A model generated the notes under the pieces. The model saw nothing but the letters and a program-made list of their open reading frames with translations. It did no database searches and was not told the DNA's origin. 64,000 bases of DNA from an uncultured Acidimicrobiia bacterium (lineage in GTDB: Bacteria; Acidobacteriota; Terriglobia; Versatilivoradales; Versatilivoraceae), in contig CAWBAT010000005.1 of assembly GCA_963786955.1 (NCBI GenBank), forward strand, positions 1,164,127 through 1,228,126, given 5' to 3'. Position numbers and translations under genes: made by a program. Below, piece after piece: positions 14,650 to 43,009 of the stretch (position 1 is the first letter of the stretch; each line of letters begins with the position of its first letter).

Positions 14650-14705
14650 AAAGGCAGGCCTTCGTTGAGTCATATGAAACGAGAACCACTGGAGTTCAAC
14701 GTTTG

Positions 14706-15245: not shown

Positions 15246-15251
15246 TTTGTG

Positions 15252-15986: not shown

Positions 15987-16013
15987 GTTAAAGACAGGGT
16001 CAAAGGGGTTCTA

Positions 16014-17198
16014 TTGATCGAGATTCAGGATGCAACTCTAAACTTACCCATTCTCCAAAGGGTGCAGAAGCGAAGCTTTGCCGCGGGCGGAATTTTTCTA
16101 GCCTTGTGCATTGGGGGTGCCATATCAAACCCCGACCAATTTTTTCGATCCTACTTATTTGCCTTCGTCTTTTGGAGCGGGATTCCACTGGGTTCCCTGG
16201 CGATCCTGATGCTTCAATACCTTACGGGGGGCGCATGGGGGATCATGATACGGCGGTTGCTTGAAGCCTCAACGCGCACATTGCCGATCTTGGCTGCACT
16301 GTTCGTCCCAATCTTTTTCGGGATGCAGCACCTCTATGAGTGGGCCCAGCCTGAAAAGGTGAAAGCCGACAAGATCTTGCAGCATAAGGCCCCTTATTTG
16401 AATATCCCTTTTTTTGCCTTGAGAACCGTCGTGTACTTTCTGGCGTGGTACAGCCTGATTTACTTTTTCAATAAGTGGTCGCAGCAACAGGATGACAACA
16501 AGGCGGCCCGGACAAAATTCAACGCGGAGAGTCTGAGCGGCCCTGGGCTTGTTATTTTTGGGGCTACCGCAACTTTTGCTTCTTTCGACTGGGTGATGTC
16601 TCTTGAGCCGCACTGGTATTCCACCATATTTGGCATGTATTACATGATCGGGCAAACCTTAACCACATTTTCTTTTACGATTTTGGTTTTGATCCTGCTG
16701 GCGGAGAGGAAGCCCTTGTCGGAAGTACTCTCACCCGAACACCTCCATGACCTGGGAAAGTTGACCCTTGCCTTCGTAATGATTTGGGCCTACCTGTCCT
16801 TCTCCCAATTCTTGATTATCTGGTCTGGAAATTTGCCGGAAGAAACACCGTATTATTTAAAACGTTTAGCCAACGGCTGGTGGTGGCTGCAACTTGCATT
16901 GATCTTGTTCCACTTTGCACTCCCGTTTATTCTATTGCTCTCACGGAGCTTGAAGAGGGCTCCTCGGCAGCTGATTAAAGTGGCGTCTTTGATCCTCTTC
17001 ATGAGATTGATTGATTTGTTCCTCCTGATAGCCCCTACTGGACACGATGGGCATTTCCGCATCCATTGGATGGATCTGGCTGCGCTCTTGGGAATCGGTG
17101 GCGTCTGGTTGGGAGTATTCTGCAGGACCTTGATTGCCCGACCAGTGCTTCCAGTTCATGATCCTGCGTTTGAGGAGGCGCTGCAAGGTGGCCACTAA
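16014..17198 (+). CDS. actF: Alternative complex III NrfD-like membrane subunit ActF
   Basis: Polytopic membrane protein paralogous to ActC. TTG start after an AAAGGGG Shine-Dalgarno. Confidence 0.8.
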   Translation: MIEIQDATLNLPILQRVQKRSFAAGGIFLALCIGGAISNPDQFFRSYLFAFVFWSGIPLGSLAILMLQYLTGGAWGIMIRRLLEASTRTLPILAALFVPIFFGMQHLYEWAQPEKVKADKILQHKAPYLNIPFFALRTVVYFLAWYSLIYFFNKWSQQQDDNKAARTKFNAESLSGPGLVIFGATATFASFDWVMSLEPHWYSTIFGMYYMIGQTLTTFSFTILVLILLAERKPLSEVLSPEHLHDLGKLTLAFVMIWAYLSFSQFLIIWSGNLPEETPYYLKRLANGWWWLQLALILFHFALPFILLLSRSLKRAPRQLIKVASLILFMRLIDLFLLIAPTGHDGHFRIHWMDLAALLGIGGVWLGVFCRTLIARPVLPVHDPAFEEALQGGH

Positions 17199-17661
17199 GC
17201 ACGGAAATCTTGAGCAGATACCGCCTGAAAGCCAACATGAAGCTAGTGATGTCAGCGCTAGGCCTATCTTCTACTTTGCCATTGCTCTTGTCATTCTCAT
17301 CATTTTTACCGTGATCTCGATGAAGGGGCTCTTCAATTTTCTTGATCAAGAAGCCGATCGCTCTGACACGCAGCTTTCCGGTGTTGCCTTCGAGCGCCCC
17401 ACACTGCCCCCCTTACCTCGTTTGGAGTCGGATCCGGTTGCTGTTCGAAGACAATTTTTCCAAAATGAAAAGAAAATCATTGAGAGTTATGGCTGGGTAG
17501 ATCAGAAACAGGGTATTGTGCGAGTTCCAATCAATCGGGCTATGGAATTACTGGTTGAGCGGGGTTTGCCAGTGAGGGCTGAGGCCAAAGTGAACCCAAG
17601 CAGTGAGCAATCTCGAGAGCCGGGAAAGTTAGAAGCAGAGAAAAGCCCAGCTGGAAAGTAG
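17188..17661 (+). CDS. Hypothetical membrane-anchored protein in ACIII-cox cluster (possible ActG-like accessory subunit)
   Basis: GTG start 9 nt after GAGGAGG. One transmembrane helix (IFYFAIALVILIIFTVI). Sits between actF and SCO1. Confidence 0.4.
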   Translation: MATKHGNLEQIPPESQHEASDVSARPIFYFAIALVILIIFTVISMKGLFNFLDQEADRSDTQLSGVAFERPTLPPLPRLESDPVAVRRQFFQNEKKIIESYGWVDQKQGIVRVPINRAMELLVERGLPVRAEAKVNPSSEQSREPGKLEAEKSPAGK

Positions 17662-17673
17662 GTGAGAGGAAAC

Positions 17674-18654
17674 ATGTTACGAAGTCACTACGAGTACGAA
17701 TCGATAAGACAGGCATTCAGGCGATTTTCATCTCTGGTCCCGCCGGGGAGAGAGGCGCGTTGTCGCTCAGTTTCTTCGCCCCTTCAGCGATGGAGGAAAA
17801 TAGTGACTTTCTCGCTCCCCTCGAGTTTTCGAGTCCTCAAATTGTTTTTCATGGCTTGCCTTTTCATTTTCAGGGGAACGAGCCTAACGGCGTCGACCCT
17901 TCAGCCGGCCCCAAACCAGCTCCCCGAAGCTGTGCGCAACGTGGGCATTGATCAGCGGCTCAATGAACAGTTGCCGTTGGATTTGGTGTTTAGGGATGAA
18001 AATGGGAAGGCCGTCCAGCTCGGAGACTATTTTCGGGAAAAGCCCGTTATCTTGACCCTCGTTTATCACGAATGTCCGATGCTCTGCAGTGAAGTGCTGG
18101 ATGGATTACTTCGCACGCTGCGTGTCTTAAAATTCAATATCGGTAAGGATTTCGACGTCATCACCGTGAGTTTTAATCCCGAGGAGGATGCCACGATTGC
18201 CCGATCTGTCAAGGAAACCTACCTGAAGCGATACAGGCGGGAGGGTGCGGAAGCGGGATGGCATTTTCTGACTGGAGAACAACCTTCCATTGAGAAGTTA
18301 ACGAAAGCTGTGGGGTTCCGCTACGGCTATGATTCGGCCAAAAAACTGTATGTCCATGCGGCAGGGATTATGTTGGTGACTCCTCAAGGGCGGTTATCGC
18401 GTTACTTCTATGGAATTGAGTTTCCGGCCAAAGATCTCCGTTTAGGACTGGTTGAGGCCTCACAAAATAAGATCGGTTCAGTAGTAGACCAGGTTCTACT
18501 CTACTGTTACCACTATGATCCGGCCACCGGGACATACGGCCTGGTCATCATGACGATTGTCCGAATACTTGGAATTGCTTTTGTCCTTGGCATGGGGTTA
18601 TGCATCGCTCTCATGTTGCGCCGGGAGAAGGGCGCAAAGTATTTAGTTTCGTAA
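17674..18654 (+). CDS. SCO1/SenC family copper chaperone (thioredoxin-like) with N- and C-terminal hydrophobic extensions
   Basis: CxxxC motif in YHECPMLC and thioredoxin-like fold signatures. Located immediately upstream of coxB. Confidence 0.8.
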   Translation: MLRSHYEYESIRQAFRRFSSLVPPGREARCRSVSSPLQRWRKIVTFSLPSSFRVLKLFFMACLFIFRGTSLTASTLQPAPNQLPEAVRNVGIDQRLNEQLPLDLVFRDENGKAVQLGDYFREKPVILTLVYHECPMLCSEVLDGLLRTLRVLKFNIGKDFDVITVSFNPEEDATIARSVKETYLKRYRREGAEAGWHFLTGEQPSIEKLTKAVGFRYGYDSAKKLYVHAAGIMLVTPQGRLSRYFYGIEFPAKDLRLGLVEASQNKIGSVVDQVLLYCYHYDPATGTYGLVIMTIVRILGIAFVLGMGLCIALMLRREKGAKYLVS

Positions 18655-18697
18655 TCGCTTTTTCGCATTGAAGTAAGATTCCAAAATACCGATCACT

Positions 18698-19702
18698 ATG
18701 CATTCCGAATTCCCATTATTTCCGGATCAAGCCTCTACGCTGGCCGCTGAAGTGGATCATCTGTACTTCTTTTTGTGCCTGGTCACGCTATTTTTTTCAA
18801 CCCTGATTGCAGGGCTTCTTTTATTCTTCGCAATCCGATTCCGCCGCCGGTCGGAAGTTGAATTGCCTCAGCCGGTCACGGGTTCTTCGACTCTTGAGAT
18901 TCTATGGACTGTGATCCCGTCCATTATTCTCGTGGTGATTTTCTTTTGGAGTGCCAAGATCTACTTCTCTATCGCCCGCCCTCCATCCGATGCCATGCCC
19001 ATTTACGTCGTAGCGAAACAATGGATGTGGAAACTGCAACATCTGGAGGGACAGCGGGAAATCAATGAACTCCATATTCCCGTTAACCGCGCGGTTCGCC
19101 TGATCATGTCGTCTGAAGACGTGATCCACAGTTTTTATGTGCCGGCATTCCGAGTCAAACAGGATGTGCTGCCGGGGCGCTATTCAACCCTCTGGTTCAA
19201 AGGGACGCGACCCGGCGAATACCATCTGTTTTGTGCGGAATATTGCGGGACAAAGCACTCGGGTATGATTGGCAAGGTGGTGGTCATGGAACCGGCTGAT
19301 TTTCAAAATTGGCTGAGTGGAGGCTCTCGCGAGGAATCGATGCAGGTGAGAGGCGAGCGCCTCTTTCAGAACTTTTCTTGCGTCAATTGTCATCACTCGG
19401 ACGGGAAAGGCCGTGGGCCGGCACTCGAAGGGATCTTCGGAAAACCTGTCAGGCTGCAAACCGGCCAAACGATCATTGCCGACGAGAACTATTTGAGAGA
19501 ATCAATCTTGAATCCAAGCCTAAGAGTGGTTGAAGGATACCAACCGCTGATGCCGATGTTTCAAGGCTTAATTAATGAAGATGGACTGGCCCAGATTCTG
19601 GCATACATCAAATCGCTGACCCCTCAGGTTCCAGAGGCTGTCAGCGCCCATGCCACGAAAGATCTGGCCAGACCGAATGAAAGGCAGAATCAAAAACCAT
19701 GA
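18698..19702 (+). CDS. coxB: Cytochrome c oxidase subunit II, caa3-type (CuA domain fused to C-terminal cytochrome c)
   Basis: CuA site H...[12 protein letters not shown] plus a C-terminal CVNCH heme c motif. Confidence 0.9.
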
Positions 19703-21330
19703 GTACCTTAACGGCTCCTGTCACCCCGGTGGAAACTCGAGAACATTATCTCAATTCCAGTTACGGTATTAAGTCGTGGCTGCTTACTACCGATCACAAG
19801 AGGATTGCGCTCTTATATTTGATGTCCATCACCTTTTTCTTCTTCCTGGGTGGCCTGTTTGCCGTTTTGATTCGTTTGGAATTGCTGACCCCACAGGGGG
19901 ATTTTGTGCAGGCGGAGACGTACAACAAGCTGTTCACGATGCACGGGGTCATTATGATTTTTTTCTTTCTCATTCCTTCCATCCCAGCCTCTCTGGGAAA
20001 TTTTCTAGTGCCGATGATGGTCGGCGCAAAAGATTTGGCGTTCCCGAGAATCAACCTCTTGAGTTGGTACATTTACGTGATTGGAGGATTGTTTACTTTG
20101 GGTGCCGTGTTGGCTGGGGGAGTCGATACGGGGTGGACGTTCTACACTCCATACAGCACGACGTATTCAAACGGTTACGTGATTGCGACAGGAGTCGGCG
20201 CTTTCATTACCGGATTTTCCTCCATTCTGACCGGGCTGAATTTCATTGTCACGATTCACAAAATGAGAGCACCCGGGCTTACTTGGTTCCGTCTCCCCCT
20301 GTTTATCTGGGCTCATTATGCGGCGAGCTTGATCATGATGCTGGGGACACCGGTCATCGCGATAACGTTAGCCTTATTAGCTCTTGAGAGGGCCTTTCAC
20401 ATAGGTATTTTCGATCCAGCCTTAGGAGGAGATCCCATCCTCTTTCAGCATTTGTTCTGGTTTTACTCGCATCCGGCAGTCTATATCATGATCCTTCCAG
20501 CCATGGGCGTGATCAGCGAGTTAGTCTCGTGTTTTTCGCGAAAGTATATTTTCGGATACCAGTTCGTGGCCTATTCCAGCATTGGCATCGCAGTGCTCGG
20601 TTTTCTGGTCTGGGGGCATCACATGTTTGTGAGTGGCCAATCTGTCTATGCGGGATTGATTTTTTCGATGCTGAGTTTTCTGGTGGCAATCCCCTCCGCC
20701 ATCAAAGTGTTTAATTGGACAGCGACCCTATACAAAGGTTCCATATCCTTTCAGTCTCCCATGCTCTATGCCTTTGGATTCCTCGGGCTGTTTACCATCG
20801 GCGGTTTAACAGGCCTTTTTTTGGCGGCTGTGGGCCTGGATGTTCATGTCCACGACACCTATTTTGTAGTGGCCCATTTCCATTACATCATGGTGGGTGG
20901 TACGGTGATGGCTTACATGGGAGGGTTGCATTTTTGGTGGCCGAAAATTTCGGGTCGTCTTTATCCGGAAGGATGGGCAAAATTCTCCGCCCTCGTTGTC
21001 TTTCTGGGGTTTCATCTGACTTTTTTCCCTCAATTCATTCTGGGTTACATGGGAATGCCAAGACGCTACCATGCCTATCCGGAAGAGTTTCAGGTGCTCA
21101 ACGTCATGTCGTCAGCGGGGGCTTCAATCTTGGGAATTGGCTATCTGATTCCCATGATTTACTTGATCTGGTCGCTTCGTTACGGACCTCCTGCCTCGGC
21201 GAATCCTTGGGGGGCAACGGGACTGGAATGGCGAACACCGTCACCGCCCCCGACGGAAAATTTCACGGAAGTCCCCGTCGTCAATGAAGGGCCTTATGAA
21301 TATTCAATCAGGGAGATTAAAGTTGTCTGA
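19699..21330 (+). CDS. ctaD: Cytochrome c oxidase subunit I
   Basis: 543 aa, 12-transmembrane heme-copper oxidase signatures ([32 protein letters not shown]). ATGA overlap with coxB. Confidence 0.95.
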
Positions 21331-21979
21331 CGCTCAATCTGCGGCGCATCCAGCACTAGCCCATCACTTTGATACAGTCGAACAGCAGCGGGAGGCGTCT
21401 TCGCTGGGCATGTGGGTTTTCCTCGCCCAGGAAGTCATGTTTTTCGGTGGGCTCTTTCTAACCTACCTGGTTTATCGAAGTGCCTATCCGATTGCATTTG
21501 CCGAAGCCAGTCACCACTTGAATGTCCCCCTGGGTGGCACTAATACGGTGATTTTGATCACGAGCAGCCTGACGATGGCTCTGGCAGTCTTTGCTTCTGA
21601 AACGGGGAAGCAAAGAATGCTGATTGCTTTCCTTCTGTTGACCTTAATCCTGGGTTTGGGTTTCTTGGGGATCAAGACGGTTGAGTACCATGACAAGTAC
21701 GTTCATCATCTGATCCCCGGATTTGGATTCGCCTACCACGGTCCTCATGGTCTGCAGGCTCAGATTTTCTTTAGTTTGTATTTTGTAATGACCGGGATGC
21801 ACGCCTTGCACATGGTCATTGGAATGGGCCTGCTGATTTGGTTAATGGCTCTTGCGCGAAAGGGAAAATTCAGCCCTGAATATCATTCCCCAGTCGAGCT
21901 TTTTGGCCTGTACTGGCATTTTGTGGATATTGTGTGGATTTTCCTCTTCCCCTTACTTTATTTGATTGGGTTGCACTAG
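21323..21979 (+). CDS. coxC: Cytochrome c oxidase subunit III
   Basis: HHFD...QQ...GMWVFL N-terminus typical of subunit III. TTG start 7 nt after a GGGAG Shine-Dalgarno. An upstream ATG at 21284 is also in frame. Confidence 0.85.
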
Positions 21980-22031
21980 CAGGGATGACGATCCTTACCT
22001 TACAAAACCCAGAGGGAATCTTATTGATCTC

Positions 22032-22331
22032 ATGTCAGAGCATATAGTACCTATTCGTATTTATTTGATTGTCTTTGCCGCCTTGATGGGGCTGACGGCG
22101 GTCACGATATTTATTTCCTACCATGATTTGGGACCCCTCAACAATGTGGTGGCACTGACGATTGCCGTTACAAAGGCCACTCTCGTCATCCTTTATTTCA
22201 TGCACGTTCGCTATAGTCCGAGCCTTACGAAACTGGTTGCTGCGGGTTCCTTTCTCTGGCTGGTCATCCTGTTGTCATTGACGATGGCCGACTACATTTC
22301 ACGAGACTGGCTTTCGTTCGTTGTCAAATAA
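22032..22331 (+). CDS. coxD: Cytochrome c oxidase subunit IV (prokaryotic caa3-type small subunit)
   Basis: About 100 aa, three hydrophobic helices, positioned directly after subunit III. Confidence 0.6.
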   Translation: MSEHIVPIRIYLIVFAALMGLTAVTIFISYHDLGPLNNVVALTIAVTKATLVILYFMHVRYSPSLTKLVAAGSFLWLVILLSLTMADYISRDWLSFVVK

Positions 22332-22447: not shown

Positions 22448-23227
22448 ATGAAACACAAGGAGTTCAAGAACAACCCGTTGATTGAGGCCCAGGTGGAAAT
22501 CCGCTGGGGGCAGGCCGACCAGAGTGGATCCGGTATCAAAACGGATCCTTATTACAAAATGACATTAGGCCGCTTCTATGAGCGAGTCATGGAAACTTAT
22601 CCTGTCCATGAAATCCTTCCTGCTTCGAAATTCCCCGAAACCATGGTGTATCATACGGCTCAACACCTCTTTCGGGTTGGGAACGGCAAATGGCCTGCCA
22701 TCCAGATTGGACCCGGGATTCTTTCCGTTCATACGAGAGAAGAATACCTGTGGGAAGATTTGGCGACGAAGGCACAAGACGCCTTATCCCAATTATTGGA
22801 TGCGTATCCGAAAATGGTCGAAATGCGGATCGAGATGATTCGATTACATTATATTGATGCAGTCAATCTTGATTTCAACCGGGAGAACGTCCTGCAGTTT
22901 TTGCAGGAAAAATTTAAGACTAACATCGAACTTCCCCCTTCTCTCTTCTTAGATGGGCACGTTAGCTCCCGCCCCAAGAGCTTTTCCTGGGAAGCGACCT
23001 TTGAAGAAGATCAGCCCGAGGGGAGCATCACGATTCGTTTTTCAACCGGGGAGCGGGATGCACGTCCTGCCCTTCTCTGGGAAACTATTGTAGAGTCTTC
23101 CGGTCGCCAGTTGCCCCCCCTTCCGAGTGGGATGGGTCATTGGCTCAACCAGGCTCACGTCCTGGCTGAAGACTGGTTTTCTAAGTTTATCGAAGGGGAT
23201 TTAGAAAAAGATTTTGCCGGTGCCTAG
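22448..23227 (+). CDS. TIGR04255-family protein (uncharacterized)
   Basis: N-terminus NPLIEAQVEIRWG matches the conserved TIGR04255 start. 259 aa. Confidence 0.6.
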   Translation: MKHKEFKNNPLIEAQVEIRWGQADQSGSGIKTDPYYKMTLGRFYERVMETYPVHEILPASKFPETMVYHTAQHLFRVGNGKWPAIQIGPGILSVHTREEYLWEDLATKAQDALSQLLDAYPKMVEMRIEMIRLHYIDAVNLDFNRENVLQFLQEKFKTNIELPPSLFLDGHVSSRPKSFSWEATFEEDQPEGSITIRFSTGERDARPALLWETIVESSGRQLPPLPSGMGHWLNQAHVLAEDWFSKFIEGDLEKDFAGA

Positions 23228-23272: not shown

Positions 23273-24037
23273 TTAAGTCAGCCCCCATTTCTTTCTCTTC
23301 TGGAAAAGTCTGAGGTACCCTCCGATCGTACGGAGGACTTTCATTTTGCTTTCCCCTTCCCGCCGCGAACCATCGAGTCCCATGGCGACTTCGGAGATGG
23401 TTGCTTCGACTTTGATTAATTTTGCGAGTAGTTCCACCATGCACTCAAATCCCGGGCTTTCAATAAGGCTCGGACCATAGCGTTTCTCCAGCCGCATCAG
23501 GACTTCGGCACTATAGAGCCGGAAAAACGAGCTCATCGTCAATATACCCCGAATTCCCAACAACTCTTTCACAAGAGTGTTGGCCACATGGCTGAGAAAG
23601 ATCCGCATCAACGAGGTCTGTGTAATTCCCCCTCCATAGGCATAAGGGCTTGCGAGAACGACCTCAAATCCTTCCAGGCGGCGAAGAAGCATCTGGCGCA
23701 GTGTTTGTAATCGCGAGGTGTTGTCACCTTCAAGGGTCACGACCCAATCCAGCAAAGTCAATTGAGGGACAATATGTCGAAAGCCAGTGGCAAATGCGGC
23801 GCCAGGTCCTTGGTTTGTCTTGTGCTGCAGCACTTCGACAGGCAATTGGTCGCGATGCCCTAAGATTTTGGTAGCTGTATGGTCGGTGCTTCCGTCATCA
23901 ATGAAGTAGACCTTGCAGGCGAACTCGCTCTGCAATTCGTGCGTCAGGCCTGCTAGATTTTCAAGTAGTCTGGGAACGTTGGCAGATTCATTGAACACAG
24001 GAATGATAAAATAAAGGTGAGAGAGTTTACTCAACAT
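23273..24037 (-). CDS. GT2 polyprenyl-phosphate glycosyltransferase (DPM1/ArnC/GtrB-like, soluble form)
   Basis: YFIIPVFNESANVPRLL...FIDDGSTDHT and a DxD-containing GT2 fold. No C-terminal transmembrane helices. Confidence 0.75.
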   Translation of the reverse strand: MLSKLSHLYFIIPVFNESANVPRLLENLAGLTHELQSEFACKVYFIDDGSTDHTATKILGHRDQLPVEVLQHKTNQGPGAAFATGFRHIVPQLTLLDWVVTLEGDNTSRLQTLRQMLLRRLEGFEVVLASPYAYGGGITQTSLMRIFLSHVANTLVKELLGIRGILTMSSFFRLYSAEVLMRLEKRYGPSLIESPGFECMVELLAKLIKVEATISEVAMGLDGSRREGESKMKVLRTIGGYLRLFQKRKKWGLT

Positions 24038-24048
24038 CGGAGACGAGG

Positions 24049-25056
24049 CTAAGTGTCTAAAGAGAAAGTTGGGTTAAATTCTCGAATTGTACCCAGGTGA
24101 GTCTGCATCCATTCCACCTGTAAACGCATTCCCTCTTCCAGGCTGATCTTAGGTGCATGTCCCAATAGATAACGGGCCTTTGATCCTTCGACCAGGCGGT
24201 GCTGCGGGTCCTCGTAAAGACGCGAAAAGTCAGAATAGGGGATAAAACGAAGGAGCGGCTTTCGGGTCATTCCTGTGACACGCCAGATCAAATACGCTAG
24301 ATTTACTACGCTGATGGTCGGTCCACCCCCGATGTTGAGGACTTCGCCGTCAGCGTAGGGTGTCTCAAGGACCTTGAGGGTTGCGTCCATCGCGTCTGAA
24401 ATATGAGTGAACGGTCTGGATTGGGTCCCGTCTCCGTGTATGGGGATCGGCTGGCCAGTCAGCGCGGCGTAGATAAAGACATCCTGGACGCCGCTCAGAC
24501 GGGACAATTGAAAGGTTGGACCATAAATTCCCGAATAGCGAAGGATTGAAATCGGAACATTGTATTTCTCCGCGTAGGCAAAGCAGAGCTGTTCTCCGTA
24601 AATTTTGGAAATGGCCAGACTCCAGCGTTCGACTCGGGACTCACCGAGAACCAAAGTGCTGCCTTCAGAGAAGCTCGCCTCAGGATTCTTTCCGTAGACT
24701 TCATCGGTTGAGGCGAAAATCACTCGTGAATTGTGCTTGCGAGCGCACTCCAAGACATGTTCTGTCCCACGAGCATTCACCTCTAGAGTTTTCAGATAGC
24801 CATCGTAGCGGGGGATCTTCAAAGCCGCCAAATGAAAAATCACTTCGACATCACGCGAGACAGCGTCAAGCCTTTCAACATTGAGGATAGTTTCTTCTAC
24901 AAAAGTAAAGTTAGGATGCGGAAGGAAGGGCGCAACGTTCAAAGAATGCCCCAGAGAAAAATCGTCCAAACCGATGACCTGATGTCCCCGGTCGAGTAAC
25001 TCTTTGAGCAAATTCGAGCCAAGAAGGCCCGCTACGCCGGTAATCAATATCTTCAT
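24049..25056 (-). CDS. NAD-dependent epimerase/dehydratase (UDP-glucuronate decarboxylase/UXS-like SDR)
   Basis: MKILITGVAGLLGSNL Rossmann motif and extended-SDR catalytic YxxxK. The ATG is 2 nt after the upstream gene's stop. Confidence 0.8.
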   Translation of the reverse strand: MKILITGVAGLLGSNLLKELLDRGHQVIGLDDFSLGHSLNVAPFLPHPNFTFVEETILNVERLDAVSRDVEVIFHLAALKIPRYDGYLKTLEVNARGTEHVLECARKHNSRVIFASTDEVYGKNPEASFSEGSTLVLGESRVERWSLAISKIYGEQLCFAYAEKYNVPISILRYSGIYGPTFQLSRLSGVQDVFIYAALTGQPIPIHGDGTQSRPFTHISDAMDATLKVLETPYADGEVLNIGGGPTISVVNLAYLIWRVTGMTRKPLLRFIPYSDFSRLYEDPQHRLVEGSKARYLLGHAPKISLEEGMRLQVEWMQTHLGTIREFNPTFSLDT

Positions 25057-25058
25057 AT

Positions 25059-26042
25059 TTATGGAACAGCCTCGTCGGTTACTTGCTTTTGCCAAGCAAT
25101 CGTTCTCAACAAACCTTCTTCCAGATCGGTCTTCGGTTCAAAGCCCAGCAACGTTCTAGCTTTTGTGATATCGGGGACCCGGTTCCGCACATCCTCGTAT
25201 TTTCCAAATGTTTGATACGAGATGAATTTTGATTTAGGTTCACCACGCCCGGCTAGTTTCCAAACCAGTCGCGCCAGATCCAAGATTGTCACTTCCTTGG
25301 TGTTTCCCAGATTGAAGACTTCTCCGGCGGCCTTTTCTGCAAACAGCGTGCGGATGATGCCATCGATGGTGTCATCAATGTAGGTAAAGCTCCTTGTCTG
25401 CAAGCCGTCTCCATGGATTTCCATGGGTTGGTCTGTGAGAGCGGCATGGATAAATACCGACTGGGGGCCTCCCCACCAAGTTGTATTTTGTCGCGGGCCA
25501 TAGCCTCCAAAAAAACGGAGGATCGTTACGGGGATGCCATATTCTTGCTGGTAGGCCAAGCAGTAGTGTTCATCGAGAATCTTTGAGACCGCGTAGGCCC
25601 ATCGCTTGACATTGCTTTCTCCCATGTAGAGATCGTGTGTCTCTGCGAATGGCAGGTGTGGGTTCTTCCCATACACATCGGAGGTGGAAGCCAAAACCAC
25701 TTTTGCTTTGTGCTTTACCGCTGCCTTCAAGACAGATTCTGTCCCGTGCACATTGATCGTGAGTGTATCGTAGGCGTCTCCATACCGGGGTATCTTAAAA
25801 GCAGCCAAGTGAACCAAGATCGTTGCATCCCTGGCCAATGATTCAATAGCCGGCCCATTCCGGACATCCTCTTGAAAAAACTCAAAATGAGGATGTCCGC
25901 GGAACTCTTTGACGTTGTGAAGAGTACCCTGAGACAGGTTATCCACGGCACAAACCGTGTGTCCCAAGGAAAGAAGCCGCTCGCATAAATTGGATCCAAT
26001 AAAACCCGCGGCTCCCGTTACCAAAATCTTTTCTGGTTTCAT
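25059..26042 (-). CDS. NAD-dependent epimerase/dehydratase (UXS/ArnA-C-terminal-like SDR)
   Basis: ILVTGAAGFIGSNL Rossmann motif. Paralog of the downstream SDR. Confidence 0.8.
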   Translation of the reverse strand: MKPEKILVTGAAGFIGSNLCERLLSLGHTVCAVDNLSQGTLHNVKEFRGHPHFEFFQEDVRNGPAIESLARDATILVHLAAFKIPRYGDAYDTLTINVHGTESVLKAAVKHKAKVVLASTSDVYGKNPHLPFAETHDLYMGESNVKRWAYAVSKILDEHYCLAYQQEYGIPVTILRFFGGYGPRQNTTWWGGPQSVFIHAALTDQPMEIHGDGLQTRSFTYIDDTIDGIIRTLFAEKAAGEVFNLGNTKEVTILDLARLVWKLAGRGEPKSKFISYQTFGKYEDVRNRVPDITKARTLLGFEPKTDLEEGLLRTIAWQKQVTDEAVP

Positions 26043-26084: not shown

Positions 26085-27191
26085 TCAATCTGCTTTCAAG
26101 AATTCGTGAAGGGCTGATATCACAGCCTGGATTTCGGCTTCCTCCATTTCCGGGAAGATAGGCAATGAGATGATCTCCTTGCAAACGGCTTCTGCGACTG
26201 GAAGAGTCACACGCGGATCCGCCAACTGCCGAAAAGCGGGTTGGAGGTGCAGAGGCGTCGGATAATGAATCGCATGGCCTATCGCTCGAGCCTTCAAGAA
26301 TGTAGCCAAAGAGTCCCGCCGCCCAGTTCTGATGGAATACTGGTTATAAACGTGTCGAACGTCAGGACCACAACTGGGAGTGATAACGTTGAGCCCTTGC
26401 CAGGCCAAATTATATCTTTGTGCAATCCGTATCCTGGCATCAGTCCAAGATTCCAAGTGTCGTAGTTTTGTTCTCAAGATGGCCGCTTGAAGAGTGTCCA
26501 AGCGGCTGTTAACGCCTAGAATCTCATGTTGGTATTTCACTTTGGACCCATGGACAGAAATCATCCGGCAGCGTTGTGCCAATTGGGCGTCATTGGTGGC
26601 TAGTGCCCCGGCATCTCCATAGGCGCCTAAATTCTTGCTGGGGAAAAAACTGAAACAGCCAATGTGACCGATCGTTCCGGCGGCCTTCCCTTTGTAGCGC
26701 GCTCCAATAGCTTGAGCAGCGTCTTCAATGACGGACAATCCATGCGACTCGGCAATGGAAAGAATAGGATCCATATCTGCTGGTTGACCATAGAGGTGCA
26801 CAGGCATCAGAGCTTTTGTCTTCGGAGTGATGCGGTCTGCAATCTGGTTCACGTCTAGATTAAAAGTTCGGGGGTCAATATCTACATACACCGGCCTGGC
26901 GCCGAGAAGCACAATGGTTTCAACCGTGGCCACAAAGGTGAATGAAGTCGTGATGACTTCGTCCCCTGTCCCGATACCCAAGGCCATCAGTGCAATCTGC
27001 AGCGCATCCGTTCCGGATGCGCAACCAATGGTATGCTGCACCTTGAGGTAATTTGCCAGCTCGGATTCAAATTCTCTAACGGGTGCACCCAAAATGAAAT
27101 CGGTAGAGTCCACAACGGACTGAATCGCCGCGTCCATTTCGTGCTTGATCATTTGGTATTGTCGATTCAGATCCACCATCTTGATCTGCAT
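26085..27191 (-). CDS. DegT/DnrJ/EryC1/StrS family PLP-dependent sugar aminotransferase
   Basis: Family-typical N-terminus (L..QY......E...A...V..S..FILG..V..FE.E.A.Y) and 368 aa length. WbpE/ArnB-like. Confidence 0.9.
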   Translation of the reverse strand: MQIKMVDLNRQYQMIKHEMDAAIQSVVDSTDFILGAPVREFESELANYLKVQHTIGCASGTDALQIALMALGIGTGDEVITTSFTFVATVETIVLLGARPVYVDIDPRTFNLDVNQIADRITPKTKALMPVHLYGQPADMDPILSIAESHGLSVIEDAAQAIGARYKGKAAGTIGHIGCFSFFPSKNLGAYGDAGALATNDAQLAQRCRMISVHGSKVKYQHEILGVNSRLDTLQAAILRTKLRHLESWTDARIRIAQRYNLAWQGLNVITPSCGPDVRHVYNQYSIRTGRRDSLATFLKARAIGHAIHYPTPLHLQPAFRQLADPRVTLPVAEAVCKEIISLPIFPEMEEAEIQAVISALHEFLKAD

Positions 27192-27211: not shown

Positions 27212-28309
27212 TTAATTTTCCAGCATGACTTGAGTGATTCGTTCAGCCGTCTTCCCGTCCCACAGCGGAACGGGGCGCCCGCTTTTGTAACGATGATGGA
27301 TAATGGCCTCAACTTGCACCAGAATCCGCTCTGAGTCAAGGCCAACGAGAGAGTTCGTCCCAATCTCCACCGTTACGGGCTGTTCGGTACAATCCCTGAG
27401 AGTCAAACAGGGCACTCCGAGATAGCTTGTCTCAGCTTGAATCCCCCCTGAGTCTGAAAGCACAGCCAGCGAGTTCCGGACGAGGTGCAGGAAATCCAAA
27501 TATCTTTTGGGCTCCGTCAGGCGCACTCGAGGATTCTTCCGAAGCACATGATACAGGTCGAGATTCTTTAAATTCTTCCGGGTCCTTGGATGTACGGGAA
27601 AAATGACCGGCATCCGCACGGAGATAGCCTGAATCAGGTCGGCCAAATGCTGCAACTTCTCAGGATTATCCACTGTGCCGGCACGGTGCGTCGTCAACAA
27701 AAAATATGCTTTGGGGGACACATTAAGCTCTTGGAGAACAGGAGAGCGACTCGACTTTTCCAAAGACCGAATGAGTTCGTCGATCATGATGTTCCCTACC
27801 AGGTGGATGTTGCCGATTGGAACTCCTTCGCGGGAAAGGTTATCGACGCCGGCCTGCTCGGTCACAAAGAGTATGTCTGAAACCTGGTCAGTCAGTATGC
27901 GATTGACTTCTTCGGGCATACTCTTATCAAAACTTCGCAGCCCGGATTCAACATGGGCTAACGGAATTTTTTCCTTGGCGCACACGAGCGCACAGGCCAG
28001 CGTAGAATTAACATCTCCGAAAACGACCACTCCATCCACTCTTTCACTCCGGATAACCTTCTCAAAACTCCTCATAATCCGGGCTGTCTGGGTAGTATGT
28101 GTACCGGAACCGACTCCCAAGTGATAGTGCGGCTGTGGCAATTCCAAATCTTGAAAGAACGATTCAGACATGGAAAAGTCGTAATGCTGCCCGGTGTGGA
28201 CCAGGATGCTCTTGATCTGTTGGGGGACTTGGGCGAATTGTCTGTGCAAGGGCGCCATTTTGAGAAAATTGGGCCTTGCACCGACAACGCTGACAATGGT
28301 TTTGATCAT
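27212..28309 (-). CDS. wecB: UDP-N-acetylglucosamine 2-epimerase (non-hydrolysing)
   Basis: IVSVVGARPNFLKMAPL N-terminus and 365 aa length are typical of WecB/WbpI. Confidence 0.9.
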   Translation of the reverse strand: MIKTIVSVVGARPNFLKMAPLHRQFAQVPQQIKSILVHTGQHYDFSMSESFFQDLELPQPHYHLGVGSGTHTTQTARIMRSFEKVIRSERVDGVVVFGDVNSTLACALVCAKEKIPLAHVESGLRSFDKSMPEEVNRILTDQVSDILFVTEQAGVDNLSREGVPIGNIHLVGNIMIDELIRSLEKSSRSPVLQELNVSPKAYFLLTTHRAGTVDNPEKLQHLADLIQAISVRMPVIFPVHPRTRKNLKNLDLYHVLRKNPRVRLTEPKRYLDFLHLVRNSLAVLSDSGGIQAETSYLGVPCLTLRDCTEQPVTVEIGTNSLVGLDSERILVQVEAIIHHRYKSGRPVPLWDGKTAERITQVMLEN

Positions 28310-28329: not shown

Positions 28330-29910
28330 TTAATGAATTCTCAGGACCAGTTCGTCCTTCTTCCGGTAAGAAGCTTGGCAGCTGACACATTCAGCCTGAT
28401 CCGCCGGGGGATGAAATCGAATGCGTTCACCGCATTCACACATCCATCCTACCGGTCTGGCGGGATTGCCAATGACTAGAGCATAGTCGGGAACATCTTT
28501 AGTCACGACCGCTCCCGCCCCCACAAACGAATAACGCCCGATGGTGTGTCCACATAGAATCGTTGCGTTGGCGCCAATGGTGGCTCCCTTCGCAACCCTA
28601 GTTTTCTGATAGGCGTGGCGCCGGTTCACGTGACTTCTCGGAGTGCCGACGTTTGTGAACACCATTGATGGACCCAGAAACACGTTATCCTCACAAATGA
28701 CTCCTGTATAGACAGAAACATTATTCTGAACCTTTACATTTTCCCCCAAGATACAATGCGGTGAAATAACTACATTTTGCCCGATCGTACAGTTTCTTCC
28801 GATCTCGCAATCCCTCATGATGTGAGAGTAGTGCCAGATTTTTGTACCACTCCCTATCTTGCAAGGCGAATCCACCGTTGTCGTCGGATGAACAAAATAG
28901 TCTGGTTCTGCCTCCCCTGGTAATCCCATATTTGTTTCGATAGGCGTGCCATTTTGCTCCAGGGAATGCTGACAGGCCGTGAGAATGCGGAGAACTTTCA
29001 GCCCTTCTTCACCATCGGTTAATGGGGAACGGCGGGACTGAAGACACTCCAGGAAATGGAGACATTCCGCTTTCAAGGGTTCCTCGTTTACGTATTCAAC
29101 CGGTATCCCGAGAGCCTTTTCAGATACCGGTTGACGCTTCACCCAGTGGATGACGTGTGGATAGATCAGAAGCTTGTGGTCGGGGGAAAGATCGTCGAAT
29201 ACCGCCATCTGTCGCTCACCGACTACGACCAACTTCTGTTCCTTAAAAGGGTGGAGCCAGCTCACGAAAATGTGGGCATTCGTGCCGCTCTTGAATTGAA
29301 AGTAGCTGACTGTCACGTCCGCGATCGATTTGTGCAAAAAATTCCCGCCAGAGGATGAGACCCGCACGGGCAATTCATCCAATAATCCCAAGATTACCGA
29401 GATGTCATGAGGTGCAAAACTCCATAAGATGTTTTCTTCCGTTCGGATTTTTCCGAAATTCAGCCGGTTCGAATATACATAACTGATCTTGCCCAGTTCT
29501 CCTTGCTGGATGAGCTCCTTAAGCTTTCTTAGGGCGGGGTGATACTGAAGCAAATGTCCGACCATCAGTAAACGATTTTGCCGGGCGGCCAGAGCTACCA
29601 ACTGCTTCCCCTCATCTACATTCAGCGCCAAAGGTTTCTCCACGAACACATCTTTACCTGCCAGGAGGCACTCTTTGGCGAGCCGAAAATGCGTTTCCGC
29701 AGGTGTGGCGATCACAACTCCGCCAATCTCGGGATCCATTGTCAGTTCGTGGAGTAATGAAGTGAAAGAGATCTTTGGGTATTGTTGTTTGAGGTTTGTG
29801 AGGATGTCTTCCTGGACTTCACAGACCTTCCCCAATGCACCCAATTCTGACCAAACCCGCAAGTGGTGTTTGCCCCACGCTCCCGCTCCGATCAGACCAA
29901 TTTTCATCAT
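28330..29910 (-). CDS. Bifunctional Gfo/Idh/MocA NAD-dependent sugar dehydrogenase (WbpB-like) fused to left-handed beta-helix N-acetyltransferase (WbpD-like)
   Basis: N-terminus [15 protein letters not shown] (Gfo/Idh/MocA Rossmann). The C-terminal third carries hexapeptide repeats ([39 protein letters not shown]). Confidence 0.8.
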
Positions 29911-37021: not shown

Positions 37022-40000
37022 ATGAGCGAAGGACTCCTCTCTTGGGATAGTTGTTCCTCAGTTTTTGTGCGCGATATGGTATTTTATGATCGCATCGAAG
37101 AAAGGATACACATCAATCCCGTGGGTGAACGCAGAATGAAACCAGAGGATCTGCTTTTAGCGGCCGAACTGGATTCCGCAAAAGCTTCCCAGATTCTAAA
37201 GAAATACGGATTTAAAGATCCGGAATGGGGCAGACCGTAATCTGCAGTTGATGGCTGAGGACCTCTCAACCCGTCTCATTCTGGCCCGAATCATCGGAAT
37301 TTATTGGAAGCTGCCAAGAAATGTCCCGACCCTGACTCTGCCATCAATTACTTTGAAAGACTTTTGGCCAATGTAGCGCATTCGAGCAATTTCTTGGGAT
37401 TTCTGGGAGATACTCCTGAAGCGCTCGAGGCCCTGATCCTTCTGCTTGGAACCTCCCCGTTCAGCGCCGAGATTCTGATCCGAAACCCCGAATACTTCTA
37501 CTGGATCCTGGATGAGTTGGGGACTCCGTGGATCAAGCCGTCATCGGCTTATCTTCAAGAAGCGCTGCAGGCGAAGGAGCCCTTTGAAGATGGAGAGCAG
37601 CAGTTGCGGGCACTCGGCCGATCTCAAACGGCGGGAAATCCTACGAATCGGCGCCAGAGACATTTTGAGAGCTGCAAACGTACTGGGGACAATTACCGAG
37701 CTTTCAAATTTAGCCGATGCTGTTTTGCAATCTATTTACTCCATATGCTTTCAGAACCTGGCTGGGAAACATGGCATCCCTTGCTTTCTGGATGCGTCAG
37801 GTAAATTGAGAAGGGCCCGGTTTACAATTCTAGCAATGGGAAAACTAGGCGGGTGCGAACTCAACTACAGTTCAGACATTGATCTGATTTTTATCTACGA
37901 TGGGGAAAACGGGAATACGACATCCGCTGAAAGCCTGCTGGAATCCAATCAACCGGGAGATCCAGAACGGACGCCCGCTATTTCTACAATCCCCCGGCCT
38001 CCAATTCTGGAAGATCTAAAATCCATTTCAAACACCGAATTCTTTACCAAGCTTGCCCAAACCATTACGCACGAACTCTCGAGTATGACTGAGGAGGGAT
38101 ATTTCTACCGAGTGGATCTCCGACTCCGCCCCGAGGGGAGTGCCGGTCCGGTGGCGAGTTCATTCACGGCCTGCAAAAACTATTACTCCAGCTGGGGGGA
38201 AACTTTTGAGCGAATGGCGCTGATCAAAGCCCGACCGGCAGCAGGTTCCACGGAGCTTGGAGACGAGTTCTGCAAAGCCTTCAACTCTTTCGTTTACCGG
38301 AAGTTCTTGGATTTTGCCGCTTTAGAAGAGATCCAGGAGATTAAGACTCGGATTGAATCAAAACTGACTGCCAGGAAAAAAAATGTCCGGCACGTTAAAC
38401 TCGGAGCGGGCGGGATCCGTGAAATTGAATTCTTCGTCCAGGCGCTCCAGTTAATCTATGGAGGTCGAAATCCGCAAATACAGGACCGCAGCACGGTCAA
38501 GACGCTCAGCCTTCTGCAGGGGAACCAATTTATTTCTACCGACGAGAGTGCAGGACTGCTGGATGCCTACTGTTTCCTGCGCGACTTGGAGCACAAGCTA
38601 CAGATGGTTAATGAGCTCCAGGCCCATGAACTTCCCGAAGACGAGGAGGAACTCTACAAATGTGCCCGGCGAATGGGCTTTCTGGAAAAGTCTCGTGCCG
38701 AGACGATCAAAACATTTTCTGAAAAAATATGAATCACACACAACCTATGTTCGGGATCGCTTTCAAAAGCTTATTTCTCTGAAGAGAGACGAGTGGTCCG
38801 GCGGCCAGATGCGAGAGGCCTCTCTGATTCTCAGCAAGAACCTCTCAAAACAGGAAGCCTTGGAAATCCTTGACAGACCGGGGTTCGAAGACCTCCAGAC
38901 AGCTTATAATCAAATCTGCTTGCTCCGCGATGCTCCTTCGTTTGCCCACTCGCCCTCAAAGATGCGCAATTTGCTGGCGAACCTCATGCCATCCCTTCTT
39001 GAGACCCTCAGGGTTAGTCCTGATCCGGATACAGGCTTGAACTTCTTCGAGCAGTTTGCCAGTGCATTAGGAGCCCGCGATTCTCTATACACTCTCCTGA
39101 ACGAATCCCCCAATGCTCTTCACAGTCTCATTCGAGTTCTCTCCAGCAGCCAGTTTCTCGCGGATTTTCTTTGCCGAAACCCCGAATTCCTGGATGCCAT
39201 TATCAAACTAGAATATTTAGAAGAGGCAAAACAACTTGAAGAATACAAATGGCAGATCAGAGAGATCCTTTCGGAGGAAAACAGCTTTGAGAATCGTGTT
39301 CAGGCCCTCAGAAAGCTTACACGAGGAAGAACTATTCCGCATTCAGGTAAGGGATGTCTTGGATCAATGTGATCGTCCATTGGTCGGTAAACAATTGGCT
39401 GCCTTGGCGGAAGCATGTTTAGAAGGGGCATTTTTGCTTGCCTGCCAAAGACTGGAAGAGCATGAAATGAGTTCCTTTCAGTCATGGGCGCAAGATCACT
39501 TTGTCATCCTTGCCCTTGGAAAATTGGGGGGAAATGATCTGAGCTACCAATCGGATTTGGATCTTGTCTATTTCTATTCGGTTGATTCAGAGACGAATTC
39601 GATCGGACGCAACGCCGCCTCACTCGTTTGGTAGAACAAATCGACCAGATACTAAGCGTCTCGACAGGAAAGGGCGCGATCTACAAGATCGACACCCGCC
39701 TCCGTCCTGAAGGAAAGAAAGGTGGATTAGTCACCCCTTACTGAAATACCAGCAATATCTCGAACATCGAGCCCAGCCTTGGGAACGGTTGGCGATGGTT
39801 CGCCACCGCTTATGATGGGGAGCTCAAGAAATCGTGCCATGCATTCTGAAATGGTGAGGGGCTTTGTCTTTCAGTCGGAATTTCCGTCCATCCGTGGTCA
39901 AGGAGATTGCCCATATCCGTCACCGAATGGAAATAGAATTGGCGAAAGAGGCTGAAGAAAATAGTTTTCATATCAAGGCAGGGGCTGGCGGGTTAGTGGA

Positions 40001-41585: not shown

Positions 41586-43009
41586 GGGGCGACGATTCCA
41601 CTCGCCCTCTCCATGCAAATTTTTCAGAATGTCGACGTTTCGAAGACTAAGAAACGACCCGTGCCAGATAGCCCTTCCGAGGTGATTCCAGTCACAATGA
41701 CTTCCCGCAATTGATTCGATTGAATACTCGGGGGCATCGATCGAAATTTTCAAGTAGTTGCTACTCAGTGCGTCCGCGGATCTCTCCGGCTCATGCCAAC
41801 GCAAGGTCATGACTCCGATTCTCTTGCCGATGAACTTTTCCCTAAATTCCCGATTCTTACGGGCAGCCAATCTCCCTCAATTCATTACCTTGCGCTGACC
41901 GGTGACTTCACTTCGGCCCAGTCGGTCGCATCAAGGCGGCTGCTGTGCCGGGTCGTTGGGAATAGGGGAATACATGGAGATAAGTCATCGGCGCCAGGCT
42001 CAAGAGCGATTTTTGTTTCGATGAAGTCTTCTTCCGTCTCGGTAGGGAAACCCACCATGACATCGGCGCCGATGGCCGCATCTGGAACACGTTGTCGCAT
42101 TTTCTCGACTAGTCGGCGATAGAACTCCGCGGTATAGGGTCGACGCATGAGGCGCAGTATCCGGTCGGATCCGCTTTGTAATGGAACATGAAAATGCTTC
42201 GCCATCTTGGGCGACTGTGCGATAAGGTCAATGAGATCATCGGTATATTCCAAAGGTTCAATGGAACTTAGCCTGAGACGTCTCAATCGATCTTCTCGAA
42301 GAAGCCTTTAACCAACAGAGCAAGGTTTTCCTTTTCCCCAAGGTCTCTTCCGAATCCGCCCAGGTGGATTCCTGTTAAGGTGATTTCCTTATACCCCTGG
42401 TTTAAAAGTTTCCTGGTTTGGCGAAGGACTTCATCGATGGACAAGCTGCGGGAATTTCCTCGAACTGAAGGAATCACGCAAAAAGAACAACGATAACTGC
42501 ACCCATCCTGAACCTTCAAAACGGGGCGCGTTCTGTCTGCCCCTCCTGGATCTCCGATCGTCCGAAGCTCGCGGGACTCGAAGATGCTGCTGCAATAGAC
42601 TGTCGCCCCTGAAGCTCGAAAATGGTTTATTGTCTGGGGATCCCGCAGCATCGCTTAGTTGCCTCTCCCTTTGCGTCACAATCGAGACCAACTGATCTTT
42701 GTGCGAGTTCCCGACTACGCAAGACACCCCACTGATGGCAGCCACCTCGCCCGGCACACGCTGCGCATAACAGCCTGTGACAACCACACGGGCAGTAGGA
42801 TTTTCTCGATGAACTCGGCGAATCATGGTGCGGGCTTCAGCGTCAGCGGCGTGGGTTACCGTGCAGGTATTGATGACAACAATATCAGAGCGGTTCCACT
42901 CCTCGGATTTCTGAAAGCGATTATTCAAGAAAGCCTGTTCCAAAGCGGCGCCATCGGCTTGAGTCGCTCGGCACCCGAAATTAATAATTTTGAAAGTCTT
43001 TGACTGCAT
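41530..43009 (-). pseudogene. mtaB: Radical-SAM methylthiotransferase (MtaB/MiaB family) split into at least four frames
   Basis: N-terminal MTTase domain (INFGCRATQADGA...INTCTVT). Radical SAM core (CSYRCSFC). Central HFHVPLQSGSDRIL and LTYLHVFPYSQRPGT. TRAM-like C-terminus. All lie in different frames. Confidence 0.7.

Follow-up and report, generated by a model that had tools for sequence, protein, structure and literature searches.

In the Wbp/Wlb pathway of Pseudomonas and Bordetella the sugar-nucleotide 3-dehydrogenases WbpB and WlbA recycle tightly bound NADH with 2-oxoglutarate, and they need WbpA upstream. In two other systems different activities are carried by one protein: ArnA unites a decarboxylase and a formyltransferase, ArnB being separate, and FdtD/WxcM unites a ketoisomerase and an N-acetyltransferase, FdtB being separate. 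MMP0352 of Methanococcus maripaludis is documented to produce NADH from UDP-N-acetylglucosamine (UDP-GlcNAc). Here we describe a gene found in a 64-kb stretch of DNA (the window) from an uncultured bacterium placed by GTDB in the Acidobacteriota (contig CAWBAT010000005.1), which codes for a dehydrogenase domain fused to an acetyltransferase domain and stands at the head of a six-gene cassette. We consider it probable that the fusion protein is bifunctional, and that, of the three steps which lead from a UDP-2-acetamido sugar to a UDP-2,3-diacetamido-2,3-dideoxy sugar, it catalyses the first and the third, with the downstream scheme outlined below.

The open reading frame (ORF) lies on the minus strand at positions 28330-29910 and codes for 526 amino acids (aa). 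Pfam finds GFO_IDH_MocA at residues 2-119 (E 1e-22), GFO_IDH_MocA_C/C3 at residues 128-324 and Hexapep from residue 340 onwards (E 2e-22). All three matches exceed the gathering scores, and they separate the Rossmann, the C-terminal alpha/beta and the hexapeptide parts of the protein. The ORF and the Pfam domains confirm what an earlier, sequence-only reading of this stretch had proposed, namely that dehydrogenase and acetyltransferase form a single polypeptide. The gene can be divided as follows.

28936-29910, minus strand: N-terminal Gfo/Idh/MocA dehydrogenase domain (N-domain), residues 1 to about 325; predicted NAD-dependent 3-dehydrogenase of the GnnA/MMP0352 type, acting on UDP-GlcNAc or its uronic acid UDP-GlcNAcA (UDP-GlcNAc(A)).
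28894-28935, minus strand: inter-domain linker, residues about 326-339; variable in length and sequence, with gaps and no conservation in the family alignment.
28447-28893, minus strand: left-handed beta-helix N-acetyltransferase domain (C-domain) of the WlbB/WbpD type, residues 340-488.
28333-28446, minus strand: C-terminal tail with four cysteines, residues 489-526; putative zinc ribbon.

In the AlphaFold model, which was built with 16 family sequences, the predicted local distance difference test (pLDDT) score is below 50 at residues 329-346, in the linker region. The protein probably starts at the second ATG (29907), because its homologues start with MKIGLIGAG. Because several housekeeping genes of the window are split, we considered whether a frameshift had merged two adjacent genes; this was ruled out, since L001 (comparison loci are given such L numbers), a metagenome contig assembled independently, codes for exactly the same 526-aa protein, and fused homologues are present in more than 600 species genomes. 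The fusion gene seems to be split in locus L164, but many genes of that contig are fragmented.

The N-domain is, as judged from sequence and model, a sugar-nucleotide 3-dehydrogenase of the GnnA/MMP0352 lineage, neither an orthologue of WbpB/WlbA nor an inositol dehydrogenase. Its Pfam scores are 81 bits for PF01408 (cutoff 24), 51.7 bits for PF22725 and 35.8 bits for PF02894, and the GxGxxG motif at residues 8-13 (G8, G10, G13) and the E91-K92-P93 motif are invariant or nearly so in the family alignment. Among PDB sequences it could be aligned over its full length with two entries only, 3C1A (6e-24), an uncharacterised oxidoreductase of Magnetospirillum, and 7BVJ (1e-19, residues 2-309), whose identity as GnnA, the UDP-GlcNAc 3-dehydrogenase of Acidithiobacillus ferrooxidans, was confirmed. 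In NCBIfam the highest score, 160.5 bits over positions 1-299 of 302, was obtained with NF040723, the model of the archaeal UDP-N-acetylglucosamine 3-dehydrogenase of the MMP0352 type. The structural model of the domain is confident (pLDDT about 90) and matches structures of the Gfo/Idh/MocA family; in Foldseek the highest target-normalised TM-score listed, 0.90-0.91, was that with GnnA (7bvj; root-mean-square deviation 2.7-3.1 Å). The sequence-only reading had called this domain WbpB-like, which does not hold as a statement of descent: WlbA of Bordetella pertussis (3Q2K) ranks 24th and covers the Rossmann half alone (residues 2-146, 3.6e-12), it ranks 50th in the structural comparison with a target-normalised TM-score of 0.81, and the best 60 PDB matches include no further entry that was deposited under the name of WlbA or WbpB. 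We also considered an inositol dehydrogenase; this identity was rejected, as TIGR04380 scored 104 bits against 160 for NF040723, both scores being well below the respective equivalog cutoffs, and the corresponding PDB matches ranked lower.

The assignment of the C-domain as a WbpD-like acetyltransferase, also made in the sequence-only reading, stands. The domain scores 78 bits with PF00132, and residues 340-507 match WlbB of Bordetella petrii (3MQG) with E 1.4e-59 and 56% identity over 158 residues. The next PDB matches are FdtD/WxcM (4MZU, 2e-38), a Helicobacter N-acetyltransferase and QdtC (3fs8, 3e-19), all of which, together with WlbB, we take to be sugar 3-N-acetyltransferases. The P414-S-M-V-F-T-N420 motif is invariant in the family; N420 is present in all 16 members aligned and coincides with the Asn of the FTN motif of WlbB. 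It presumably corresponds, by the inferred offset, to Asn84 of WlbB, which we understand to position the 3-amino group of the sugar. A loss of acetyl-CoA-binding features, which would have spoken against an acetyltransferase, was not observed. The last 38 residues of the fusion contain four family-invariant cysteines (C491, C493, C508 and C511), at the first two of which WlbB has Ser and His. This tail was modelled as short beta-strands with pLDDT 73-81, and a zinc ribbon is a reasonable interpretation of its sequence. In the loop of residues 423-433 (28612-28644, minus strand), beside the conserved active-site motif, residue 433 is Ala in the window protein and Glu in at least 90% of the family; His432 and Arg438 are also found there, and this variant of the loop is restricted to the closest clade of the window protein.

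The architecture of the fusion is widespread, its annotation automatic, and its domains come from known families; the rarity implied by the sequence-only reading was wrong. A protein search with the fusion returned at least 8000 scored candidates, and the matches listed carry both domains, are essentially full length and come from several phyla; a scan of one genome per species gave more than 600 matches. Among the matches listed were Acidobacteriota, Nitrospirota, Planctomycetota, Verrucomicrobiota, Desulfobacterota, Chloroflexota and Bacteroidota, further Alpha- and Gammaproteobacteria and one metagenome-assembled genome (MAG) of Methanobacteriota, with Microvirga rosea as one cultured species. 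In the databases these proteins are named either 'Gfo/Idh/MocA family oxidoreductase' or, by JGI, 'UDP-2-acetamido-3-amino-2,3-dideoxy-glucuronate N-acetyltransferase', and a search of the accessible literature yielded no description of a WbpB-WbpD or a GnnA-acetyltransferase fusion. One relative has the unfused version, a dehydrogenase of 337 aa and an acetyltransferase of 196 aa encoded by adjacent genes with a 4-nt overlap; this arrangement is the evident forerunner of the fusion. Variants of about 694 aa (P0020, P0022 and P0024) consist of the dehydrogenase followed by two consecutive beta-helix acyltransferase domains; the second beta-helix suggests a further elaboration, for example a second N- or O-acylation. 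A variant of 657 aa contains a partial DegT segment only.

The fusion gene is followed by those of a 2-epimerase, a C3-aminotransferase, two short-chain dehydrogenases/reductases (SDR1 and SDR2) and a family 2 glycosyltransferase (GT2). The gaps between the six genes are 2-42 nt, therefore one operon is indicated. A scan of the operon for promoters and terminators gave counts not above those of shuffled sequence. Upstream, the gene of a TlpA-like thiol-disulfide oxidoreductase lies at 30095 and is divergent from the operon. Profile searches bore out the neighbours named in the sequence-only reading (Epimerase_2, DegT, two extended SDRs and a GT2). The two genes next to the fusion are the following.

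27212-28309, minus strand: non-hydrolysing UDP-HexNAc 2-epimerase, WecB/WbpI-like (PF02350, E 6e-100; TIGR00236, 327 bits, cutoff 210).
26085-27191, minus strand: sugar C3-aminotransferase dependent on pyridoxal phosphate (PLP), of the DegT family and WbpE-like (PF01041, E 2e-124).

The epimerase, which exceeds the WecB equivalog cutoff, is far closer to two enzymes in the PDB than to the ordinary bacterial WecB enzymes: an archaeal UDP-GlcNAc 2-epimerase (4NEQ, 1e-91) and the Thermus 2-epimerase (8SXV, 3e-89; PMC10622841) of UDP-2,3-diacetamido-2,3-dideoxy-glucuronic acid (UDP-GlcNAc3NAcA). These two are about equally close to it, and its description as WecB/WbpI-like, proposed earlier, stands. 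The aminotransferase is of the C3 type and close to WbpE, again as proposed: it matches the C3-aminotransferases WbpE (3nyu, 1.5e-105) and QdtB (3frk, 3e-96), and its top PDB match is 7b0d (1e-116), deposited as glutamine--scyllo-inositol transaminase. The fusion gene has a DegT gene as its direct neighbour in the majority of the 80 genomes sampled. The order of the six genes is kept in an Acidobacteriota MAG (GCA_040753175.1, L002), with 60-72% identity of the proteins, and likewise in L084 and L164, both closely related; L064, from a Nitrospiraceae MAG, lacks SDR2 but possesses the genes of the fusion, DegT, WecB, SDR1 and GT2. These sequence comparisons support a predicted pathway of 3-oxidation, 3-transamination, 3-N-acetylation and 2-epimerisation, and in this general form the pathway has good support from homology and from a context conserved across phyla.

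The distal half of the operon consists of three genes.

25059-26042, minus strand: SDR1, extended SDR of the UXS/ArnA clade with T-S-D and Y-x-x-x-K motifs; predicted C4-centred redox chemistry.
24049-25056, minus strand: SDR2, tandem paralogue of SDR1 (45% identity) without the catalytic Tyr (L-A-I-S-K).
23273-24037, minus strand: small soluble GT2 of 254 aa (PF00535, 66.6 bits), predicted polyprenyl-phosphate sugar synthase similar to DPM1, ArnC and PpgS.

The description of the two SDRs as UXS-like, given in the sequence-only reading, goes too far: the similarity to the UXS clade does not extend to the catalytic residues, which differ in both. The best PDB match of SDR1 is human UXS1, a UDP-glucuronate decarboxylase (4lk3, 6.6e-50, residues 4-318), and a UDP-glucuronate decarboxylase is the best match of SDR2 too. 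SDR1 belongs by sequence to the UXS clade and is not a canonical UXS, because T-S-D replaces T-S-E. All ten GT2-adjacent homologues of SDR1 have T-S-D together with Y-x-x-x-K, whereas (T/S)-S-E is present in 9 of 10 homologues adjacent to a UDP-sugar 6-dehydrogenase. Epimerisation, decarboxylation or dehydration are possible reactions of SDR1. SDR2 is probably a non-catalytic partner subunit, because the Tyr of Y-x-x-x-K is absent; in this column the window protein has Leu and its orthologue from L002 has Ser, and the NAD-binding glycines (GxxGxxG) are retained. Most likely SDR2 starts at the ATG at 25056 (335 aa) and not at the listed TTG at 25095, which would create an overlap of 37 nt with SDR1. 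The T-D-E motif of SDR2 hinted at a 4,6-dehydratase with SDR1 as reductase; this idea was dropped, as SDR2 lacks the catalytic Tyr.

The only PDB relatives of the GT2 are an archaeal dolichol-phosphate mannose synthase (DPMS; 5mlz, 8e-8) and ArnC (9bhc, 2e-7). Its NCBIfam matches to PgfS, ArnC and PpgS are weak (32-36 bits, far below the cutoffs), its JGI family name is dolichol-phosphate mannosyltransferase, and no transmembrane (TM) segments were predicted in it. Genes for SDR1 (47-52% identical) and GT2 (36-41% identical) are adjacent in at least 10 metagenome loci without the fusion or DegT. In the metagenome scan with SDR1, its more distant homologues adjoin 6-dehydrogenases, as ordinary UXS do. 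On the flanks of the stand-alone SDR1-GT2 loci there are usually genes of large polytopic membrane proteins, in which about 7-12 TM segments were predicted, and large polytopic neighbours of the SDR1 and GT2 homologues were seen in L086, L091, L165, L166 and L002. In L094 the neighbour matches PMT_2 with 28.9 bits (cutoff 26.1) and is accompanied by a four-TM DUF2304 protein, in L093 there is a weak PMT_2 match, and in L064 a four-TM EamA protein of 120 aa is encoded near the GT2. Loading of the sugar onto polyprenyl phosphate, as suggested in the sequence-only reading, is supported by the DPMS and ArnC relatives and by the GT-C-type and four-TM neighbours, because the layout of these homologous loci resembles that of Arn-, Gtr- and PpgS-type systems. 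The SDR1-GT2-GT-C module looks, from sequence and by analogy, like an uncharacterised lipid-carrier glycosylation system of the Arn/Gtr kind, and the T-S-D SDR1, the pseudo-SDR2 and the GT2 of the window probably feed such a GT-C system.

The SDR1-GT2 module, whose counterpart in the window is at 23273-26042 (minus strand), was recorded in loci L086-L095, L165 and L166. L165, from a Bacteriovoracaceae MAG (GCA_046328975.1, positions 8106-18827), contains genes for a formyltransferase, an SDR, a GT2, a 7-TM protein, WecB, a 6-dehydrogenase, DegT, the fusion and an Asn-synthase-type amidotransferase. Judged by its gene content, this locus may combine a diacetamido uronamide pathway with an Arn-like branch.

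The sequences establish which domains are present, how they are conserved, how the operon is built and in what context it recurs; from this we infer all catalytic activities, the substrate and the order of steps, as follows. The N-domain would oxidise the C3 hydroxyl with NAD+ to a 3-keto sugar, the separate DegT aminotransferase would turn the ketone into a 3-amine, and the beta-helix domain would acetylate this amine with acetyl-CoA, a reaction expected to pull the oxidation forward. The 2-epimerase would then yield the manno form, the sugar would be altered around C4 by SDR1, for which SDR2 without its catalytic Tyr may be a partner, and the GT2 would put the product on polyprenyl phosphate for a GT-C transferase encoded elsewhere. 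It is plausible that the benefit of the fusion lies in the coupling of acetylation to the keto-forming oxidation. It is likewise plausible that trimeric beta-helix domains and dimeric or tetrameric Gfo/Idh/MocA domains build a larger assembly.

As to the substrate of the fusion, we lean towards UDP-GlcNAc, which would give UDP-2,3-diacetamido-2,3-dideoxy-glucose (UDP-GlcNAc3NAc), and assign an appreciable, less than even chance to UDP-GlcNAcA, the substrate in the Wbp/Wlb pathway of Pseudomonas and Bordetella. A start from UDP-GlcNAc is favoured because of the affinity of the N-domain to GnnA and MMP0352 and because a 6-dehydrogenase gene is missing: six-frame tblastn of the 64-kb window found none, in agreement with the sequence-only reading, and none was found within 10 kb of the orthologous cassettes in L002 and L064. 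A GnnA/MMP0352-type N-domain would explain a window without a 6-dehydrogenase. Several observations weigh against this preference and against the linear scheme built on it. The N-domain is only 27% identical to GnnA, therefore substrate specificity cannot be read from its sequence, and its score with NF040723 does not reach the equivalog cutoff of 450 bits. In about one quarter of the sampled fusion loci (44-58% identical; L003, L008, L011, L066 and L165 are examples) a 6-dehydrogenase gene lies within 10 kb, often adjacent, which indicates that the fusion family also serves uronate pathways; there the 6-dehydrogenase may act before or after the fusion. A WbpA gene could be located outside the window. 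Both SDRs are closest to uronate decarboxylases, and the 2-epimerase is close to the uronate-specific Thermus enzyme. No GT-C transferase or flippase was found in the 64-kb window, the only polytopic proteins of which are those of an alternative complex III and a cytochrome oxidase. Finally, SDR1 and GT2 occur elsewhere without the fusion. For this reason the first half of the operon might furnish one sugar and the second half another, and all six genes need not act in one linear pathway.

These objections can be arranged into explanations of their own. A classical Wbp/Wlb pathway with fused WbpB and WbpD is a possible, though less likely, alternative. WbpA, encoded elsewhere, would provide UDP-GlcNAcA, from which UDP-GlcNAc3NAcA and its manno epimer UDP-ManNAc3NAcA would be made; SDR1, as a decarboxylase of the UXS/ArnA kind, would give a 2,3-diacetamido pentose, and the GT2 would load the pentose on a lipid carrier in an Ara4N-like way (Ara4N, 4-amino-4-deoxy-arabinose). 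The 6-dehydrogenases beside about one quarter of the related fusions agree with this, as do the glucuronate N-acetyltransferase name used by JGI, the uronate substrate of WlbB, to which the C-domain is closest among solved structures, the match of the epimerase to the Thermus uronate 2-epimerase, the decarboxylases as best PDB matches of both SDRs, and the occurrence of formyltransferase, SDR, GT2 and 6-dehydrogenase genes together in L165. It is at odds with the lack of a 6-dehydrogenase in the window, within 10 kb in L002 and in L064, with an N-domain nearer to the UDP-GlcNAc-using enzymes and aligned with WlbA over its Rossmann half only, and with an SDR1 that lacks the Glu of the T-S-E decarboxylase motif, which the homologues linked to 6-dehydrogenases have kept. 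We find it unlikely that the operon consists of two separate, merely co-transcribed modules, in which the fusion, DegT and the epimerase would provide cytoplasmic glycosyltransferases, whose genes lie elsewhere, with a soluble UDP-diacetamido sugar, and SDR1, SDR2 and GT2 would make a lipid-phosphate sugar of another kind. Such a division would fit the occurrence of the SDR1-GT2 pair in at least 10 metagenome loci without fusion or DegT, the lack of SDR1-GT2 in most of the sampled genomes with the fusion, and the gene on the opposite strand that separates the two sets in L165, but the window and L002 share gene order and tight spacing although their proteins are only 60-72% identical, L064 joins fusion, DegT, WecB, SDR1 and GT2, and WecB-like genes are found in both kinds of locus.

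A role in the synthesis of the lipid A sugar 2,3-diamino-2,3-dideoxyglucose (GlcN3N), with the N-domain and DegT as GnnA and GnnB and the beta-helix domain as acyltransferase, appears very improbable. GnnA is indeed the closest characterised relative of the N-domain, and the beta-helix domain has weak NCBIfam matches to LpxA and LpxD, but with WlbB, an acetyltransferase, the C-domain has 56% identity (1e-59, compared with about 1e-10 for LpxA), no lpx genes are adjacent, and DegT is closest to WbpE and QdtB. Acetylation at N3 would block acylation in lipid A. This role was rejected on account of the WlbB-like C-domain. Returning to a start from UDP-GlcNAc, a more far-reaching picture of the cassette can be drawn only tentatively, and we regard it as less likely than not: an Ara4N-like carrier-lipid pathway to an undescribed sugar, leading from UDP-GlcNAc through UDP-GlcNAc3NAc or UDP-ManNAc3NAc (UDP-(Glc/Man)NAc3NAc). 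In such a pathway a heteromer of a new T-S-D subclass of UXS-related SDRs and a Tyr-less pseudo-SDR would modify C4 or C6, the soluble GT2 would load the sugar onto polyprenyl phosphate, and a GT-C enzyme would transfer it in the periplasm to lipid A, the lipopolysaccharide core or protein in Acidobacteriota-like bacteria. The beta-helix trimer and Gfo/Idh/MocA dimers would form, by means of the zinc-ribbon tail, a higher-order assembly which recruits the aminotransferase.

The fusion provides a Rosetta-stone link between a GnnA/MMP0352-type 3-dehydrogenase and a WlbB-type acetyltransferase in thousands of uncultured bacteria, and the origin of its dehydrogenase from the GnnA rather than the WbpB type bears on both the substrate and the database names. 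If a start from UDP-GlcNAc proves true, these phyla make 2,3-diacetamido sugars by the archaeal/GnnA route and not by the textbook uronate-first route of Pseudomonas and Bordetella, and the automatic glucuronate N-acetyltransferase names are partly wrong for a very large family. A bifunctional polypeptide of this kind would be a handy reagent for the chemo-enzymatic synthesis of diacetamido sugars. The module of T-S-D SDR1, GT2 and GT-C is a separate and less well understood lead, which concerns the glycosylation of the cell envelope in Acidobacteriota, Nitrospirota, Myxococcota and Bdellovibrionota.

Some observations concern the surroundings of the operon. On the plus strand at 9513-22331 there is an alternative complex III-like cluster, whose Fe-S subunit has 1019 aa and whose NrfD-like subunit has 10 TM segments, followed by SCO1/SenC and then cytochrome c oxidase subunits II, I, III and IV. 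The oxidase cluster lies directly beside the sugar operon, and this synteny is kept in L164. A 259-aa protein without a Pfam match is encoded at 22448-23227 (plus strand), convergent with the operon end, and occupies the same position in L164 and L167. A second Gfo/Idh/MocA oxidoreductase, of 428 aa, is encoded at 56660-57946 (plus strand); its relationship with the fusion does not go beyond the Rossmann region (32% identity over 85 residues), and its N-terminal 'RRKFV' may be part of a signal of the Tat (twin-arginine translocation) type. Several housekeeping genes are split into ORFs that adjoin or overlap: MutS (domains I, II-IV and V) into three ORFs at 51703-54456 (minus strand), GlnE at 37304-39372 (plus strand) and a UPF0004/radical-SAM gene similar to MiaB and RimO at 41885-43009 (minus strand), which indicates assembly indel errors or real pseudogenes. 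The region from 39.4 to 47 kb has short ORFs only. Rfam and tRNA scans of the window found nothing.

It is instructive to compare the locus with the known systems. With WlbB of Bordetella and WbpD of Pseudomonas (EC 2.3.1.201, PDB 3MQG) the C-domain shares the left-handed beta-helix, the SMVFTN motif and the 3-N-acetylation step; in the window this domain is fused behind a dehydrogenase, and the four invariant cysteines of the tail are not present in WlbB. The N-domain resembles GnnA (7BVJ) and MMP0352 (EC 1.1.1.374) in its compactness (about 300-320 aa) and in its EKP and H-D motifs, and these two enzymes are its best full-length matches by sequence, profile and structure. The differences are that the Asp of D-x-x-x-H is replaced by Ser164 throughout the fusion family, and that GnnA feeds lipid A synthesis, unlike the role proposed here. 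The relationship with WbpB/WlbA (EC 1.1.1.335, PDB 3Q2K) is limited to the superfamily, to oxidation at C3 and to the position in the pathway, as only the Rossmann half aligns and the window has no WbpA. As in ArnC/ArnE-F/ArnT, GtrA/GtrB/Gtr* and PpgS/Rv3632/Rv3779, a small GT2 related to DPMS and ArnC is present, a sugar-preparing SDR stands beside it, and in homologous loci the GT2 adjoins PMT_2-type GT-C and DUF2304 or EamA four-TM proteins, whereas the window has the GT2 only, without a TM anchor and with about 32-36 bits to the characterised members. A parallel in domain logic is offered by ArnA and FdtD/WxcM, the latter (4MZU) being also the second-best PDB match of the C-domain: in these proteins, as in the fusion, a keto-forming and an N-acylating step are placed on one chain and the PLP-dependent aminotransferase is separate. 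The sugars differ, and the keto-forming domain, an extended SDR or a cupin in ArnA and FdtD/WxcM, belongs to the Gfo/Idh/MocA family here.

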